64,000 nt of DNA from an uncultured Clostridia bacterium. GTDB taxonomy: Bacteria; Bacillota; Clostridia; TANB77; CAG-508. The DNA is taken from the NCBI GenBank assembly GCA_944387545.1, contig CALXFE010000005.1:12803-76802 (forward strand). The letters run 5' to 3'. Made by a program: the position numbers and the translations under genes. Shown in pieces: positions 10,986 through 61,954 of this stretch (position 1 is its first letter; every line of letters starts with the position of its first letter). Below the pieces are notes generated by a model, which had not been told where the DNA came from, ran no database searches, and saw nothing but the letters and a program-made list of their open reading frames with translations.

Positions 10986-11993
10986 TTAATCATTATATAA
11001 ATAATCTTGTGGATTCACATGTTCTCCATTTATTCTTATTTCTAAATGTAGATGTGGTCCTGTCGAATTTCCTGTTGAACCAACTGCTGCAATAACATCG
11101 CCAGCTTTTACAGTCTCCCCTTTTTTTACATACATCTTACTGGTATGTGCATACCATGTTTCCACACCATTTCCATGGTCAACCTTTATTAAATTTCCAT
11201 AAGAACCATTATAGCTTGCAGCTGTCACTGTACCATCGGCTATAACTTTTATAGGTGTACCTTGTACTGCAGAAATATCTAATCCAGTATGTGTTGATTT
11301 TCTTAAATTGCTTCTAACGCCATATCTAGATGTGATTTTTCCTTCTATTGGTGCCACTGCTAATTTTATACCATTAACACTTGGTAATGCATTTAATCTT
11401 TCTTCCTCTTCTTTTTGTTGTGCAATTTCTTCTATAGCTGTCTGCACGGTTTCTTGAACATTTACCTTTGCGACTTCTAAATCTGATGTATTTACTTCTT
11501 CTTCATTTTGTGTATATTTTTCTACAATACTTAAATGAATATCTTCACTATTAGTTTCTTCTTTTATTTCATTTACCAATTCTTCTGCTTCTTCACTTGT
11601 ATCTACTTTTTCAATAACCGATTCTTTCACTGCTATTTCATAATATTTATAAGTAACTGTTATATCCTCTTTTAATTCTTCTACTAATGTTTTATCCTCT
11701 GTATCTTCTCCTCTATTTACTAATTTTAACTCATATTCTGGTTCGTTATCTAAACGAATATCTTCAATATTTTTACTTGTACTTTCAGTAATTTCTTGTT
11801 TTAAGGTTTCTTCTAAAGCTTGCTTATTTTCCACATATCCAATTTCCTCACCAGAAATACTTACTTTATACATTGGCTTATATTTTATCAATACAATCGC
11901 GATTATAAAACCAAAAGCTATAATCATGATGTTAAAAAATTTTAGAAACTCTTTTGTATAAAATTTTAGTTTCTTTTTTAAAATAAAATCCAC
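10986..11993 (-). CDS. M23-family murein endopeptidase with N-terminal TM anchor
   Basis: HTGLD, GSYGNLIKVDH, YAH and TGNSTGPHLHLE motifs. Confidence 0.9.
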   Translation of the reverse strand: MDFILKKKLKFYTKEFLKFFNIMIIAFGFIIAIVLIKYKPMYKVSISGEEIGYVENKQALEETLKQEITESTSKNIEDIRLDNEPEYELKLVNRGEDTEDKTLVEELKEDITVTYKYYEIAVKESVIEKVDTSEEAEELVNEIKEETNSEDIHLSIVEKYTQNEEEVNTSDLEVAKVNVQETVQTAIEEIAQQKEEEERLNALPSVNGIKLAVAPIEGKITSRYGVRSNLRKSTHTGLDISAVQGTPIKVIADGTVTAASYNGSYGNLIKVDHGNGVETWYAHTSKMYVKKGETVKAGDVIAAVGSTGNSTGPHLHLEIRINGEHVNPQDYLYND

Positions 11994-12967: not shown

Positions 12968-15205
12968 ATGAAATTTGAACAATGGGATGGATTTGAAAAA
13001 GGTGATTGGCAAAGTGAAATTAATGTAAGAGATTTCATTCAAAAAAATTATACACCTTATGAAGGAGATGCAACATTTTTGGCTGGACCTACAGAAAAAA
13101 CAAAAAAATTATGGGATGAAGTACTAGAACTTTATAAAAAAGAAAAAGCTTCTGAAGGTAGTGTTTTAGATATAGACACAAAAACAATTTCAACCGTTAA
13201 TAGCCATGAGGCTGGATATATTGATAAAGATTTGGAAGAAATTGTTGGTCTTCAAACAGACGCACCTTTAAAAAGAGCCATTATGCCTTTTGGAGGAATC
13301 AGAATTGTAGAAAAATCTTGCGAAGCTTATGGTAGAAAAGTAGATGATGAAGTGGAAGAAATTTTCCATAAATATAGAAAAACACATAATGACGGAGTAT
13401 TTAGTGTATATACACCAGATATCAGAGCTGCTAGAAGTTCACACTTAATTACTGGATTACCTGATGGTTATGGTAGAGGAAGAATTATCGGTGATTACAG
13501 AAGAGTGGCACTTTATGGTGTTGATATTTTAATCGAAGAAAAGAAAAAAGATTTAGAAATATTAGATGTTGACTGTTTAACTGAAGAAATCATTCGTGAA
13601 AGAGAAGAAATCAGTGAGCAAATTAAAGCTTTAAATGATTTAAAATCTATGGCTTTAAAATATGGATATGATATTTCTAAACCTGCAAGTAATAGTAAAG
13701 AAGCTGTTCAATGGCTATATTTTGGATACTTAGGTGCTATAAAGGACCAAAATGGTGCTGCCATGAGTATTGGTAGAACTTCTACTTTCTTGGATATTTA
13801 TTTTGAAAGAGATTTAGAAAATGGAACAATTACAGAAGAAGAAGTTCAAGAAATTATGGACCATTTTGTTATGAAATTAAGATTAGTTCGTTTCTTAAGA
13901 ACACCTGAATATAATGAATTATTCAGTGGTGACCCTGTATGGGTAACAGAGAGTATTGCTGGTATGGGAATTGATGGAAGAACTTTAGTTACCAAAAACT
14001 CTTTTAGAATTCTTCATACTTTGGAAAATTTAGGACCAGCTCCAGAACCAAACTTAACTGTTTTATGGTCTGAATATTTACCAGAAGGCTTTAAGAGATA
14101 TACAACAGATTTATCTATAAAAACATCTTCTATTCAATATGAAAATGATGATTTAATGAGAATTACTTTAGGAGATGACTATGGAATTGCTTGTTGTGTT
14201 TCTCCAATGAAGATTGGTAAACAAATGCAATTCTTTGGTGCAAGAGCAAACTTAGCTAAAACTTTACTTTATGCTATTAATGGTGGTAGAGATGAAATCT
14301 CTGGAAAACAAATCACACCAAAATTTGCTCCAATCACATCTGAATATTTAAACTATGATGAAGTCATGGACAAATTCAAACAAATGATGGATTATGTAGC
14401 AAAAATTTATATTAAAGCTTTAAATGCTATTCATTATATGCATGATAAATATTCTTATGAAGCAATTGAAATGGCTCTTCATGATAAAGATATTTTAAGA
14501 ACAATGGCTTGTGGTATTGCTGGATTATCTGTTGTTGCTGACTCACTTTCTGCTATTAAATATGCAAAAGTAAAAGTTATCAGAGATGAGACAGGACTAG
14601 CTGTTGACTACGAAATCGAAGGAGATTTCCCTAAATTTGGTAATGATGATGATAGAGTTGACAGTATTGCAGTTGATATTGTAAAAACATTTATGAATAA
14701 ATTAAGAAGATATCCAACTTATAGAAATTCTAAACATACATTATCAATTCTTACCATTACATCAAATGTTGTTTATGGTAAAGCTACTGGAAATACACCT
14801 GACGGAAGAAGAATGGGTGCTCCATTTGGACCTGGTGCTAATCCATTACATGGAAGAGATACAAATGGTGCTTTAGCCGTTATGAACTCTATTGCAAAAT
14901 TACCATTTGATTTTGCAGAAGATGGTATTTCATATACTTTCTCAATTACACCTAAAACATTAGGAAAAGATGAAGAAACAAGAGTAACAAACTTAGTCAA
15001 TATGTTAGATGGATATTTTAAACAAACAGGTCATCATATCAATGTAAATGTTTTTGATAGAAGTTTACTAGAAGATGCTATGGAACATCCAGAAAATTAT
15101 CCTCAATTAACTATTAGAGTATCTGGATATGCTGTAAACTTTACAAAATTAACAAGAGAACAACAATTAGATGTTATTAATAGAACTATTCATGAAAGAA
15201 TTTAG
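12968..15205 (+). CDS. pflB: Pyruvate formate-lyase (formate C-acetyltransferase)
   Basis: [12 protein letters not shown], catalytic IACCVS and glycyl-radical [10 protein letters not shown] motifs. Confidence 0.98.
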
Positions 15206-16072: not shown

Positions 16073-17008
16073 TTACATTCCTAATAATTTTAATTCTACA
16101 TTTTCCATTTTATATTTTCCATCTACTAATTTAAAGTCCACTAATGTATCTTCTAGTGTTTCTTTGTTTTGTCTTAAATCAGTAGTAAAATATAATTTAA
16201 TTTGTGGAATTTCAAGTTTATTTTTTACAATTTCTTTAAATGTTTCTGCCATGTGTTTTTCATCTTCACATATTAATATCAATTGTGGCATTGCAGCAAA
16301 TCCAGAATCTCCTGGAACATAGTTTTCATAGAATTCTTTATATAGTCTCATTCTTTCTACTAATTTCTTTTCCCAATCTTGTTCTCTTCTAATAACCTCA
16401 AAAACAAATTGAATGGATTTTCCATTTTTCGTAAGTTTAACTGCACCACCACTTGCTTTAAAGATTTTTCCTGATACCTTTGCAGTAATTGCTGGTTTTA
16501 CAATGTAACTATCAAATGCTTTTACTTTTCTTAAATAAGCAATTAGTGTTTGATTTCCAGCTAACCTTTTTTTAATCATTGGAACTGGTTTTGTATTATC
16601 AGATGGTTGCCATTTACAATCAATTTCTTTAGAATTTAATAAATATTTTCCCATCTTTTCCAAACAATAAATTCTATAGATTCCTTTTCCTTCATCAGAA
16701 GTAAAGTAATATCTTGTTAAAATTTTAGATTTTACTAATTGATCTAATTTATTATTTAATTTGTCTTGTGATTTTGGGTCAATTCCCTTTATTTCTAACA
16801 TTTGGTACAATTGTCTTGATGTGATAAATTCAAACTCATTTACTAAATCTAAAATTGCAAAATGGATTTCATTAATATGTCCAATATTAATCTTATGTAC
16901 GATTTGATTCATTGACACATACCCATCTTTTCCATCAAAAGTTTTAATTTCACCTTCTCTGATAGCAAATGGAGATACTTGTGCCTTGATTTCATTATCT
17001 TCTACCAT
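16073..17008 (-). CDS. Hypothetical protein resembling the replication-relaxation family (winged helix plus restriction-endonuclease-like fold)
   Basis: ILDLVNEFEFITSRQL..KLDQLVKSKILTRYYF..RIYCL..GKYLL is wHTH-like; ..FVFEVIRR..RLYKEFY..PQLILICED is nuclease-like. ATG 17008 follows AGGGGG. Family assigned by eye. Confidence 0.5.
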   Translation of the reverse strand: MVEDNEIKAQVSPFAIREGEIKTFDGKDGYVSMNQIVHKINIGHINEIHFAILDLVNEFEFITSRQLYQMLEIKGIDPKSQDKLNNKLDQLVKSKILTRYYFTSDEGKGIYRIYCLEKMGKYLLNSKEIDCKWQPSDNTKPVPMIKKRLAGNQTLIAYLRKVKAFDSYIVKPAITAKVSGKIFKASGGAVKLTKNGKSIQFVFEVIRREQDWEKKLVERMRLYKEFYENYVPGDSGFAAMPQLILICEDEKHMAETFKEIVKNKLEIPQIKLYFTTDLRQNKETLEDTLVDFKLVDGKYKMENVELKLLGM

Positions 17009-17075
17009 TTTTCTTTTCCCCCTTAAATTTAATTTAGAATTATCTATATTTTTAAATTGTAAACTAAAAAAATAT

Positions 17076-17873
17076 TTATTTTTCAATCAATAATTTTACT
17101 TTTCTTTTTTCATTATCTATTTTTTTGATATATACATTTACTTTTTGTCCATATTCATATCCTTCAGAATATTCTGCCATACCTACTAAATTAGGCGTTA
17201 GTTCTATAAAGATACCATTTTTGTTTTTCTCAGTTTCGCGAATAATGCCTTGTACTTTCATTCCTGAAGAAAAATTTCTAGCATTTTCTTCCCATGTTCC
17301 TAACGTTTCTTTATATGACAAATTCACTCTTCCTGTATATCTATCTATAGATTTTACCACAACATTTACTTTTTGTCCAATATTTAATCTTTCAAATGGT
17401 GTTTTTATCCTTGCAACCGATAAATCCTCTATATGCGCTAGTCCAACAATTCCTCCTCCAATTTCGATAAAAGCTCCATAAGGTCTGATATTTTTTACTA
17501 TGCCTGTCACATGTTGACCAACTTTCATCTTGTCTTTTATATAATTTAGTGCTTCTTGTTGAACACTTTTTCTAGATAGAAGCACTTTTCTATCATTCTC
17601 TATATCTTGTATTTTAAATTGGACATATTTATGTACTTTTCCCACACATAATTTTTCGTTTGGTAGTTCTCCTTCAATATCTTCTACCTCGCTTCTTGGG
17701 ATGATTCCTTCTATGTTATTTCCTAAATTTATATGTAGATTATATTGTTCATCACAACTTTGTACAATTCCTTGTATTGTTTTATTTTCTTGTTGATATT
17801 CCTGTATCTTTTGTAAATTTAAGTTTTCTATTTCTTCATTCCATCCTTCTGGCACAAATTGAAATGTATTCAT
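17076..17873 (-). CDS. S1 RNA-binding domain protein (short ribosomal protein S1-like, about 3 S1 domains)
   Basis: VTGIVKNIRPYGAFIEIGGGIVGLAHIEDLS..IGQKVNVVVKSID is a canonical S1 repeat; two further degenerate repeats. Confidence 0.88.
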   Translation of the reverse strand: MNTFQFVPEGWNEEIENLNLQKIQEYQQENKTIQGIVQSCDEQYNLHINLGNNIEGIIPRSEVEDIEGELPNEKLCVGKVHKYVQFKIQDIENDRKVLLSRKSVQQEALNYIKDKMKVGQHVTGIVKNIRPYGAFIEIGGGIVGLAHIEDLSVARIKTPFERLNIGQKVNVVVKSIDRYTGRVNLSYKETLGTWEENARNFSSGMKVQGIIRETEKNKNGIFIELTPNLVGMAEYSEGYEYGQKVNVYIKKIDNEKRKVKLLIEK

Positions 17874-20599: not shown

Positions 20600-20670
20600 C
20601 TTTTTCCCTCTTTCTTTATTATAATGATATTTTTATATTAATAAATATGGTCGTGTATATGAAATAAAAA

Positions 20671-20695
20671 CAACCATACATTTTTTGTATGATTG
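20671..20695 (-). terminator. Intrinsic terminator of the pilin-like gene
   Basis: CAATCATACA-loop-TGTATGGTTG plus a T-tract on the minus strand. Confidence 0.65.
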
Positions 20696-20736
20696 TATTT
20701 TATAACTTTTTTTCAGTTTTAGCAATATATTTCATA

Positions 20737-20770
20737 ACTTTTCGACTCAAGCTCTGCTCGAACGAAAAGT
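20737..20770 (-). other. GC-containing hairpin downstream of the putative DGR variable region
   Basis: ACTTTTCG-T-TCGAGC-AGA-GCTTGA-GT-CGAAAAGT, about 74 nt after the stop, without a U-tract. Confidence 0.45.
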
Positions 20771-20843
20771 ATATAATTTTAAATTGTTTACTTTCTTTTT
20801 ATGTTATTCATACTTTTTTATTGCTCAGATAACAGATTTCACA

Positions 20844-21008
20844 TTACTGTACTGCGAGACTTACACGGAAGCTAAGGTAGTAGCGATCTTTTCCATAGTT
20901 GGCGTTAACGTAGAATACTCCAGCCTTAGCTCCCTCGATATAGTAGCCTCCTCGCAAGAAGAAAGGATCCTCCACCCCCACAAATGCGACGTTATCTCCA
21001 TTCCACCC
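20844..21008 (-). other. Putative DGR variable region (VR)
   Basis: Hand count: 80/165 nt GC and 18 of 54 sense codons ending in C, versus 4 of 59 in 21063-21239 of the same gene. Confidence 0.7.
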
Positions 21009-22514
21009 ACTAGTTTCATATGTGGCATCTCCATATTTATAGTCACTACTTGCTGTTGTTCCTGTATACACTGTTGAATATGCATCATTGGTCCCATCTG
21101 CAAATGAACTTCCGTTAGTTAAACTCGGACTTTCTCCATAATATCCTGCCACATATTCAAGTGTTCCTCCTGATAAATCATAAACTCCAAAAATGTTTCC
21201 TGTGCTACTCTGCTTTATATTCGTTACATAAGCAGTTCCAGAACCTCCGCCTGTATAATAATTACTATTTGAATTTACTGTTATTTCCGTTCCATTTCTT
21301 CCATATTTGCTTTCTGTTAAGTATGCTACTGCTCCCCATTCACTATTTTTCATTAAATGGCTACTTAATGTCGTATTATAGTTTTGCGCATTTGTAAATA
21401 CATTTCCTATTGCAATATATCTCCAACTGCTCACTCCTGCTACAAATTTAGGTTTATTATTCCCTGCACTACTTGCTTCATATTTTGCTACCCAGATTCC
21501 TTCTAGTTTACTATTCCATCCTCCATAGTTGACATCTGCATCAAATGCAGGATGTGTTTTGAAATATTTATCATTTACGGATATAGCTGTTTGTACAGAC
21601 ACCCCACTTTTCGTTCTTCCTTCTGTATCCACAATTCCTCTTGCATCACTATATCCTACTATTTGCTCATTTACTAATGCTTCTTCTTCTGTCAATGTTC
21701 CTGCTCTATATGCATTTTCACTATCTTGTGAGTCAAAATATATTATCCTATAAGCATATCTTGGTATCCATACAAAATAACTATCTACATTATCTACTGT
21801 TACTTTTGCATTTGCCCAATGACTATCTCCTCCATTTGTTGTTCCTCCATCTGACATATCACTATCTGTTGTTTCTACATAACTATACCAATCTGTTCCA
21901 TTACTATTACTTACATTTGTTGTTTCTCCTGTTGCTTCATTATATGTGATTGCTGTCATTCCTTGTTTTAATACTGGGTGATTTGGTGTAGTTGTTGTAT
22001 TATGGCTTGTTCCACTTAAAAATTCTACTTCTATTACACCATAAGCCATGTTAAAGTTTGTTCCTGTTCCCTCTGTTGGTTTTTCTGGCTCTCTTTCTGT
22101 ATAATCCTCTACATTTCCATTTTTATCTACAAAATATTTTCTTCCATTTGCATCATTTTCTGTTATCGTTACGATATATCCTTCTGTTCCATCCTCATTT
22201 GTCCCTGGTTTTACTGCGTATTTTCCAGTTTCAAAATACTTTCCTAATTCTTCATCTAAATTATCTTGCATGATTTCTTCACCATTATTTTTTGTCAATG
22301 CACCTAATGCCGATAATTTTACTTTTTCTTTTTCTTCTGCTAATTTTGTTTGTTCACTTGCATCTGTTGCTCTTCTTAAGATTCCATTATCTCCTGTCAA
22401 GGTTGCAATGGTTACTCCTGCTAATATTAATAACACGATGATAGTTATGATTAATGCTATTAAGGTAATACCAGTATTCCTTTTTTTTATATAAGCTATT
22501 TGATCATTCTTCAT
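20844..22514 (-). CDS. Type IV pilin-like surface protein with a C-terminal C-type-lectin-fold (FGE/Mtd-like) domain; putative DGR target
   Basis: KKRNTG|ITLIALIITIIVLLILAGVTIATLTGDNGI class III signal-like N-terminus; WIPRY, GIWVAKYEAS, MKNSEWGAVAYL, GVYDLSGG..EYV, and RGG..AGVF..SFRV at the C-terminus. ATG 22514 follows AAAGGAAG. Confidence 0.8.
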   Translation of the reverse strand: MKNDQIAYIKKRNTGITLIALIITIIVLLILAGVTIATLTGDNGILRRATDASEQTKLAEEKEKVKLSALGALTKNNGEEIMQDNLDEELGKYFETGKYAVKPGTNEDGTEGYIVTITENDANGRKYFVDKNGNVEDYTEREPEKPTEGTGTNFNMAYGVIEVEFLSGTSHNTTTTPNHPVLKQGMTAITYNEATGETTNVSNSNGTDWYSYVETTDSDMSDGGTTNGGDSHWANAKVTVDNVDSYFVWIPRYAYRIIYFDSQDSENAYRAGTLTEEEALVNEQIVGYSDARGIVDTEGRTKSGVSVQTAISVNDKYFKTHPAFDADVNYGGWNSKLEGIWVAKYEASSAGNNKPKFVAGVSSWRYIAIGNVFTNAQNYNTTLSSHLMKNSEWGAVAYLTESKYGRNGTEITVNSNSNYYTGGGSGTAYVTNIKQSSTGNIFGVYDLSGGTLEYVAGYYGESPSLTNGSSFADGTNDAYSTVYTGTTASSDYKYGDATYETSGWNGDNVAFVGVEDPFFLRGGYYIEGAKAGVFYVNANYGKDRYYLSFRVSLAVQ

Positions 22515-22643
22515 GTGTCTTTCTTCCTTTCTTTTTCCATTTTTCTTTTGCATTATAATATTTCACTTTGCTTTCACCATATATCTATACTTTACTATAA
22601 GTATCATACCTTTTCAAGTATATTTTTAAATTTATTTTATCAT

Positions 22644-61669: not shown

Positions 61670-61715
61670 AAAAAATCTTGTAACTTAAATAATTTGAATA
61701 GTTACAAGATTTTTT
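61670..61715 (-). terminator. Terminator of the tRNA operon
   Basis: 16-bp inverted repeat AAAAAATCTTGTAACT/AGTTACAAGATTTTTT immediately after tRNA-Cys. Confidence 0.8.
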
Positions 61716-61718
61716 CAT

Positions 61719-61793
61719 TGGAGGCGACACCCGGATTCGAACCGGGGATCAGAGTTTTGCAGACTCGTGCCTTAGCCACTTGGCTATGTCGCC
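61719..61793 (-). tRNA. tRNA-Cys (GCA)
   Basis: GGCGACATAGCCAAGTGGCTAAGGCACGAGTCTGCAAAACTCTGATCCCCGGTTCGAATCCGGGTGTCGCCTCCA; cloverleaf with encoded CCA. Confidence 0.95.
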
Positions 61794-61835
61794 ATATATT
61801 AAATTATATGCTCTAATTTAAAAAATAGAACAAAT

Positions 61836-61911
61836 TGGAGCGGGAAACGGGGCTCAAACCCGCGACCTCTGCCTTGGCAAGGCAGCGCTCTATCAACTGA
61901 GCTATTCCCGC
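61836..61911 (-). tRNA. tRNA-Gly (GCC)
   Basis: GCGGGAATAGCTCAGTTGATAGAGCGCTGCCTTGCCAAGGCAGAGGTCGCGGGTTTGAGCCCCGTTTCCCGCTCCA. Confidence 0.95.
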
Positions 61912-61925
61912 ATTTCGCAAGTAAT

Positions 61926-61954
61926 ATGATAACAAATATATTGATAAAAGTCAA
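61926..61954 (-). promoter_or_regulatory. Sigma-A promoter of the tRNA operon
   Basis: TTGACT-17-TATCAT. Confidence 0.7.

Follow-up and report, generated by a model that had tools for sequence, protein, structure and literature searches.

A variable region of a chromosomal DGR that has probably lost its cassette in an uncultured Clostridia bacterium

The GC-rich 3' end of a gene for a lectin-fold protein in an uncultured Clostridia bacterium is probably the variable region (VR) of a chromosomal DGR whose module of template repeat (TR), avd and RT is gone from the locus, leaving behind a VR that would have been frozen and would since have drifted by ordinary mutation. The gene lies in the window, by which we mean the whole 64-kb stretch of DNA that was analyzed, and the features on which the argument turns are collected in Table 1. 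Sequence comparison supports a DGR origin of the segment. The preliminary description of this DNA had placed a DGR-type VR at the C-terminus of a lectin-fold protein, and that placement is borne out by a match of the predicted fold to the DGR variable protein TaqVP and by sister orthologues that sit beside TR-avd-RT, their VR and TR differing almost only at adenines. Its further proposal, that a DGR elsewhere in the genome acts on the gene in trans, did not fare as well and is weighed with the other explanations below.

Table 1. Features of the target locus, in window coordinates
Feature	Position	Strand	Basis or remark
Variable region, 147 nt, gapless alignment to sister TRs	20850..20996	-	mismatch counts and composition
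Conserved VR 3' flank CAGTAATGTGAAATCTGTTATCTGAGCAAT (last codon, stop codon, 24 nt)	20820..20849	-	sequence comparison
Hairpin CTTTTCGTTCGAGCAGAGCTTGAGTCGAAAAG	20738..20769	-	alignments to L002, L008 and L011; fold; last sequence kept before the missing cassette
Segment that follows the RT stop codon in sisters	20665..20737	-	91% identical to L002 13488-13560, directly after the RT stop
Target (variable-protein) gene	20844..22553	-	ORF intact; 569 aa from first ATG; >7,400 homologues; orthologous to DGR targets in L002, L008, L010 and L014
C-type-lectin/FGE-like domain, VR at its end	20847..21812 (approx. aa 248-569)	-	AlphaFold2 model, Foldseek, PDB sequence profile
Hydrophobic pilin-like N-terminal segment GITLIALIITIIVLLILAGVTIAT, aa 28-51	22401..22472	-	membrane anchor or possible class III signal peptide

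Composition of the gene end and the protein that it encodes

The terminal segment of the target gene (20844-21008, minus strand) contains 80 G+C in 165 nt, in a window that is 28.5% GC overall. Codons ending in C make up 18 of its 54 sense codons, compared to 4 of 59 directly upstream; outside of the segment as a whole they account for 34 of 515 codons of the gene (Fisher p = 1e-7 for the segment versus these 515), and the TAT:TAC ratio of Tyr codons is 2:4 within the segment versus 33:2 elsewhere in the target gene. Adenines also become scarcer toward the gene end, their fraction declining from ~0.40 to ~0.25 over the final 180 nt. A content of at least 75 G+C per 165 nt is reached at just two spots in the 64 kb, namely this segment and positions 61705-61928; the latter is ordinary, consisting of two adjoining tRNA genes on the minus strand (61722-61793 and 61839-61911). 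A search of Rfam matched no family at the target locus. The compositional anomaly of the segment is real and highly non-random, and the counts on which the preliminary description had relied (80/165 G+C, and 18/54 versus 4/59 C-ending codons), together with its peptide, were all reproduced.

Homologues of the target number more than 7,400, almost all of them in ENA gut-type metagenome assemblies, and they have in common a C-terminal scaffold (GWN.D.A.FV....PFF.RGG......AGVF......G......SFRVCLAVQ) with hypervariable positions interspersed. The gene caller's version of the window protein, P0001, begins at an ATG at 22514 and comprises 556 aa. No paralogues of the target gene were found within the 64-kb window. 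Homologues P0010, P0025, P0046, P0161 and P0166 end in ...RFPCMSRSTVM in place of ...SFRVCLAVQ, an ending that represents a frameshift within the VR and that is fixed in its cluster (the P0010 cluster, with 8 members).

Structure prediction bears on the fold. The AlphaFold2 model of the target (77 homologues) attained a pLDDT of 86.4 and a pTM of 0.82, and its top Foldseek match in the PDB was TaqVP (5vf4; E=9e-9, probability 1.0), which was likewise the sole significant match of a sequence profile run against PDB sequences (E=8e-4). Pfam returned FGE-sulfatase at a sub-threshold E=0.0035, and the viral matches to the target were tail-fibre proteins with an FGE domain. Structure prediction, the check that had been proposed for the fold, thus gave a C-type-lectin/FGE-fold with a DGR variable protein as best match. 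With an uninterrupted reading frame and intact fold-determining scaffold residues, the target protein probably still works as a surface binder; it is probably a membrane-anchored protein that would bind a ligand with one fixed specificity.

The N-terminus of the protein reads KRNTG followed by ITLIALIITIIVLLILAG and resembles a class III (prepilin) signal; the family consensus at this pilin-like motif is NGITLIALVITIIVLLILAGV. Within KRNTG-ITLIALIITIIV, a Gly at -1 and a hydrophobic helix are present, and Ala occupies position +5, where pilins have Glu. The Pfam N_methyl model scored below threshold on the target (14.0 bits against a cut-off of 21.2, E=0.038), TIGR02532 gave no match, and the GspG model reached 14.1 bits against a cut-off of 88.9 (E=0.036). 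Comparison of the PDB sequence profile with pilins (geopilin and MshA) yielded E values of 0.4-0.8 only, and no pilin was among the Foldseek matches of the target model, in which helices at residues 16-40 and 45-75 are followed by beta strands, residues 1-50 being of low confidence. No prepilin peptidase or pilus assembly genes were found in the window, whose genes are housekeeping only. The sole pilus-type locus near the window lies on the contig beyond window position 1 (L016 10175-12003), where a sortase gene adjoins the gene for a TED/SpaA-domain protein; as a pair they make up a pilus or adhesin of the sortase-dependent kind, which has no relation to the type IV label of the target.

The preliminary description had spoken of a type IV pilin in a gut Clostridium. 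The pilin-like hydrophobic N-terminus (ITLIAL... after the Gly) stands, whereas the Glu at +5 is absent, N_methyl is sub-threshold and there are no pilus genes nearby. The evidence extends to a membrane-anchored protein with a pilin-like N-terminus, and type IV pilin is a weak label for it. As to the organism, it is documented just as an uncultured Clostridia MAG.

Sister loci and their template repeats

Orthologues of the window gene at the mfd-target-DUF362 locus (L002, L008, L010 and L014) are 74-82% identical to it. The gene order mfd - target - TR - avd - RT - DUF362 is found in L002-L005, L010, L008, L009 and L014-L015, whereas the window reads mfd - target - DUF362, with flanking genes at ~90-94% nucleotide identity to those of the cassette-bearing loci; the flanks of L008 (BRZ_PC__bin97) are 91.7% identical to the window. 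P0018, a homologue at 74% identity, is surrounded by the same genes as the window target (topoisomerase - SDR - mfd - target - ... - DUF362 - SpoU - SpoU - S1 - PFL activase - PFL) and has a bAvd gene and a 340-aa RVT_1 gene 3' of the target (L002-L005). Both components are recognizable as parts of a DGR: the sister Avd passes NCBIfam NF033474 (91.8 bits, cut-off 80), and the sister RT carries the DGR-type IGNYTSQ motif together with YMDD.

The template repeat of L002 spans 147 nt (11786-11932) between the target stop codon and avd, and the TR scaffold is 41% GC. TRs of four species differ from one another at 2-6 of 147 nt, compared to differences of 22-39% at the 4-fold degenerate sites of those species. 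A scaffold pattern that matches all of the VRs and TRs seen was scanned against 185,579 GTDB species representatives, a set outside of which the window's own genome lies, and it was found in three MAGs, all of them sister species labelled 'uncultured Clostridia bacterium' and all with cassettes.

Several of the sister loci have been rearranged. L013 (8525-10187) retains its TR and avd, while insertion of an AAA_14/DUF4143 ATPase gene has shortened its RT to 47 aa; its VR is clean, with 1 non-adenine mismatch, and the element looks to have been disabled recently and independently. In L002 the segment of ~74 bp after the RT stop codon is present twice (13488-13560 and 14936-15010), and the two copies flank an inserted gene for a PemK-family toxin (14373-14852). 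PemK genes also adjoin the cassette in L014 and L015, there upstream of the target. Elsewhere in the neighbourhood, the window bears a 337-aa ORF (16073-17086, minus strand) between the S1-domain gene and the PFL activase gene, with a weak match to Replic_Relax (PF13814; 27.0 bits, cut-off 25.3), and at that position the sister loci have a 311-aa ORF without a Pfam match.

Mismatches between VR and TR were counted separately at template adenines and at all other positions. In the five cis VR/TR pairs, 22-30 mismatches fell at template adenines, and those at non-adenine positions numbered 0/96 in L008, 1/94 in L009, 1/96 in L014, 1/98 in L013 and 5/96 in L002. The window VR, when compared to four sister TRs, mismatched at 24-25 of 51-53 adenines and at 21-23 of 94-96 non-adenine positions. 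Its non-adenine divergence of 22-24% approximates the divergence between window and sisters at 4-fold sites in flanking genes (0.23-0.33). Moreover, 15 of 23 non-adenine changes map to codon position 3; changes that are mostly at third positions are the signature of ordinary substitution rather than of adenine mutagenesis, which affects positions 1-2 of AAC codons. By type of change, 6 of the same 23 are T>G, unlike the AT-biased spectrum of drift, and the TR that last wrote the window VR may therefore have differed from those seen.

Residues at the variable positions also set the window VR apart. Two Glu (GAG) and two Lys (AAG, AAA) occur there, residues that lie outside the repertoire of NNC/NNT codons. 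Among the 101 homologues parsed, 58 have no residue of this kind and 19 have one, compared to four in the window; four are otherwise found only in the cassette-less P0022/P0125 (L011-type) lineage, where all members have them, and in the distant homologue P0069. The cassette-less copies form a gradient of non-adenine mismatches, with 9 in L007, 12-13 in L006, 17-19 in L011 and 21-23 in the window. The VRs of the window and L011 differ at 43% of template-adenine positions.

Two specific scenarios were considered for these differences and rejected. That the window and L011 froze one ancestral VR is unsupported, as the two have at most one derived non-adenine change in common. A second TR type behind the non-adenine changes common to the window and P0013 (Val at codon 3, 'GVFYV') was discarded: Val/Ala is an ordinary point polymorphism in the P0013 cluster, and an L013-like 'FVGI' template as donor would remove only ~2 mismatches, as judged by manual codon comparison with the L013 TR.

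Variation among alleles was read from a protein database clustered at 90% identity, at which level alleles that differ just in the VR land in one cluster. Within cassette-bearing clusters, 28 of the last 55 columns were variable in P0050 and 22 of 55 in P0002/P0171. In contrast, the cassette-less P0022/P0125 cluster, with 13 distinct alleles and 30 variable columns elsewhere in the protein, was variable at 0 of 55 columns in the VR, and the cassette-less paralogues P0009 (L006) and P0013 (L007) were fixed save for one Val/Ala point change at a non-adenine position. The window protein is represented by one allele from one strain and is the single member of its cluster; three ONAT22-1 scaffolds that are 100% identical to the window at the DNA level belong to the same strain, and are hence uninformative on variation. 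Cassette-bearing P0018 likewise displayed no variants, over 27 contigs; absence of allelic variation thus carries little weight as evidence.

The cassette junction and alternative readings

The window is colinear with L008 up to L008 position 4320, the end of the hairpin (CTTTTCGTTCGAGC...CGAAAAG), and colinearity resumes at L008 6042-6045, the RT stop codon. The interval absent from the window, L008 4321-6041 (1.7 kb), is exactly TR-avd-RT, and the junction falls between window positions 20738 and 20737. At its edges the L008 cassette bears a short imperfect direct repeat, GAAAAG-CATAGGGATAT and AAGAAG-TAGGAAACATAT (GAAAAG or AAGAAG, then TAGG.A.ATAT). Neither blastn (word size 7) nor an ungapped scan blind to template adenines detected a TR-like copy in the window; only chance matches and A-rich noise were returned. 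Likewise, phmmer and tblastn with sister queries found no RT or Avd in the 64-kb window or in an extension of ~17 kb, while the positive control was recovered; the extension was reached via the window's end genes and lies on contig BRZ_GL__NODE_269_length_86772, bringing the coverage to ~81 kb in all. The statement in the preliminary description that the window holds no RT, Avd or second copy was upheld by blastn, the adenine-agnostic scan, phmmer and tblastn alike.

Homology between VR and TR stops at ...GTCTCGCA(G/A)TA, and the VR boundary of the window (...TTCCGTGTAAGTCTCGCAGTA, then CAGTAATGTGAAATCTGTTATCTGAG) is identical or nearly so to that of bona fide VRs, with an IMH-like end and the downstream flank. 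The 3' flank is common to cassette-bearing and cassette-less copies at three different loci, and on the strength of these sequence comparisons it is a candidate target-recognition element. Perfect conservation of this boundary and flank at the 3' end of the VR means that cDNA might still be taken up here, given a matching TR. The hairpin lies directly upstream of the TR in sister species and may act as terminator for the target gene or belong to the DGR RNA. It is conserved with G-U-compatible changes in L002, L008, L011 and L006, that is, in cassette-bearing and cassette-less loci and in a paralogue at another locus.

The course of events that we consider probable can be outlined as follows. 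In an ancestor or donor allele, the RT would have copied an A-rich TR with errors at adenines, and the cDNA would have replaced the 3' end of the target gene, with AAC/AAT template codons becoming NNC/NNT. Such a history of TR copying, combined with the 41% GC of the TR scaffold, would account for the C-ending codons, low A and high GC of the segment. The 1.7-kb TR-avd-RT block would then have been lost, with a clean junction right after the conserved hairpin. Following this loss there would have been no rewriting, and the VR would have evolved as ordinary coding sequence, acquiring substitutions at ~22% of non-adenine positions, mostly at the third codon position, in the course of a drift lasting roughly since the separation of these species. 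We infer that the present state arose by loss rather than by never gaining the cassette, and that homing into the window VR does not occur at present.

A single loss does not explain every observation equally well. A second cassette-less lineage (P0125/P0022) occupies the same locus (L011 7698-7960 and L012 6501-6805; L012 is also without the DUF362 gene). In L011 as in L012 the junction is that of the window, CGAAAAG directly followed by TTA(A/T)GAAATATATTGC, yet cassette-bearing species are at least as close to the window and to L011/L012 as these two are to each other. A junction shared with L011 together with different VRs is a poor fit to a single old deletion followed by drift alone, and requires that the loss recurred (through the same microhomology), that recombination spread the empty allele, or that some diversification followed the loss. 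The VRs of these two lineages look independently diversified. A broader version of this idea is that TR-avd-RT is a discrete unit lost and gained at fixed boundaries, after the hairpin and after the RT stop, such that lineages would switch between diversifying and locked-in states by recurrent or site-directed removal, or the empty allele would spread by recombination, possibly with trans diversification after loss; we regard it as conceivable, albeit doubtful.

The preliminary description had instead favored active diversification in trans, whereby a DGR elsewhere would use its own TR to rewrite the VR, making the gene one of several dispersed targets in a network. For some chromosomal DGRs remote targets are established, with 45 of 372 DGRs having non-adjacent targets (PMC5758913), and cassette-less paralogues do occur in relatives, next to DAP epimerase in L006 and next to hrcA in L007. 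The conservation of the VR 3' flank in all copies and the combination of one junction with different VRs in the window and L011 would also be in keeping with rewriting from afar, and a remote, very divergent TR elsewhere in the genome is conceivable, given that the data here cover ~81 kb. However, the TR of four species is almost invariant, and a donor in trans would need at least 21 differences from it; homing, moreover, would erase non-adenine differences, whereas those in the window VR have reached the neutral level seen between species. The cassette-less copies in L006, L007 and L011, with 9-19 non-adenine mismatches, have VRs that within lineages are invariant or single point changes apart. 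Furthermore, three TR-bearing MAGs are all that the GTDB representatives yielded for the scaffold pattern that any cognate TR must match, a relaxed pattern found 0 matches in JGI metagenomes and IMG/VR, and no RT was found across the ~81 kb. Taken together, the clean absence of the cassette from the gene's own locus, the 21-23 non-adenine differences from the TR, and the contrast between invariant cassette-less and hypervariable cassette-bearing relatives speak against the network, and make current rewriting in trans quite unlikely.

Alternatively, the empty site could be ancestral, with TR-avd-RT inserted at a fixed point in the sisters and the window VR either the earlier work of a DGR at another place or brought in along with the gene. 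The L006 paralogue lends this some weight, as it consists of target and hairpin spacer up to the TR edge, without a cassette, at an unrelated locus, and so does the identical empty junction in two lineages that are mutually no closer than to cassette-bearing species. Nevertheless, we judge an ancestral empty site unlikely: no fewer than five diverged lineages, among them the more distant L013 type, have the cassette at this locus, imperfect direct repeats at both cassette edges are typical of deletion, and the truncation of the L013 RT to 47 aa represents independent partial decay elsewhere. Whether the cassette was lost or was never there, the practical conclusion is the same, namely that the VR is not being rewritten now. 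Least of all do we credit an explanation without any DGR, in which the GC-rich tail would be a compositional island from horizontal transfer or from selection on the tip of the lectin domain. Although the window is without TR or RT and its VR has many non-adenine differences from known TRs, the 147-nt gapless alignment to TRs of the orthologous locus, in which 73-75 of 96 non-adenine positions are identical, the end boundary and 3' flank as in bona fide VRs, and the coincidence of hypervariable columns with AAC/AAT codons of the TR render it extremely improbable.

Relation to known systems

With loss of the cassette as the probable history, the locus offers a clean natural example of DGR loss, in which the target keeps a compositional scar (NNC codons, low A and high GC) and its target-site flank while ordinary evolution has resumed. 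It serves also as a caution, since a screen by composition alone would mistake relics of this kind for sites of active hypermutation. Live targets and fossils can be told apart by counting non-adenine mismatches to the conserved TRs of relatives, of which the former have 0-5 and the latter 9-23. In these uncultured low-GC Clostridia, a single family of surface lectin-fold proteins mixes actively diversified and frozen copies, a finding that bears on how frequently specificities generated by DGRs become fixed. Lectin/FGE-fold DGR targets, pilin-type N-termini on some of them (PMC11661182), remote targets and non-canonical mismatches have already been described, and no new mechanism is involved here.

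The closest structural counterpart is TaqVP of Thermus aquaticus (5VF4), which has the same C-type-lectin/FGE-like fold with the VR as a C-terminal binding surface. The two are only 14-15% identical, and TaqVP lacks both the pilin-like anchor and the additional helical and beta region that the window protein has at its N-terminus; the DGR of TaqVP is intact. Treponema denticola TvpA and its remote targets (PMC4891356, PMC5758913) are similar in being FGE-sulfatase-type variable proteins of chromosomal DGRs, with a family dispersed away from the RT. Some chromosomal DGRs are known to act on remote targets (PMC5758913, PMC8144416), and such targets are defined by near adenine-only differences from the TR, the maximum reported for a single target being 11 non-adenine differences (PMC5758913). 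The window VR exceeds that maximum with its 21-23, and its cassette is adjacent in relatives and probably deleted here.

The element of the relatives is built on the plan of the prototype DGR, mtd-avd-TR-brt of Bordetella phage BPP-1: its VR is C-terminal, AAC codons dominate its A-rich TR, and it encodes Avd as well as an RT bearing the I/LGxxxSQ motif. It differs in being chromosomal rather than phage-borne, in a housekeeping neighbourhood and in the order target-TR-avd-RT, while the window keeps the target only. In Bacteroides, DGRs diversify the adhesive tips of type V pili (bioRxiv 10.1101/2024.11.15.621889), and a G-type pilin domain has been noted among rare DGR targets (PMC11661182). 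The Bacteroides systems resemble the present one in that gut-associated bacteria direct a DGR at surface- or pilus-associated, adhesin-like proteins. They belong to another phylum and to another pilus system, whereas for the window protein the pilin assignment is not established and the DGR is gone.
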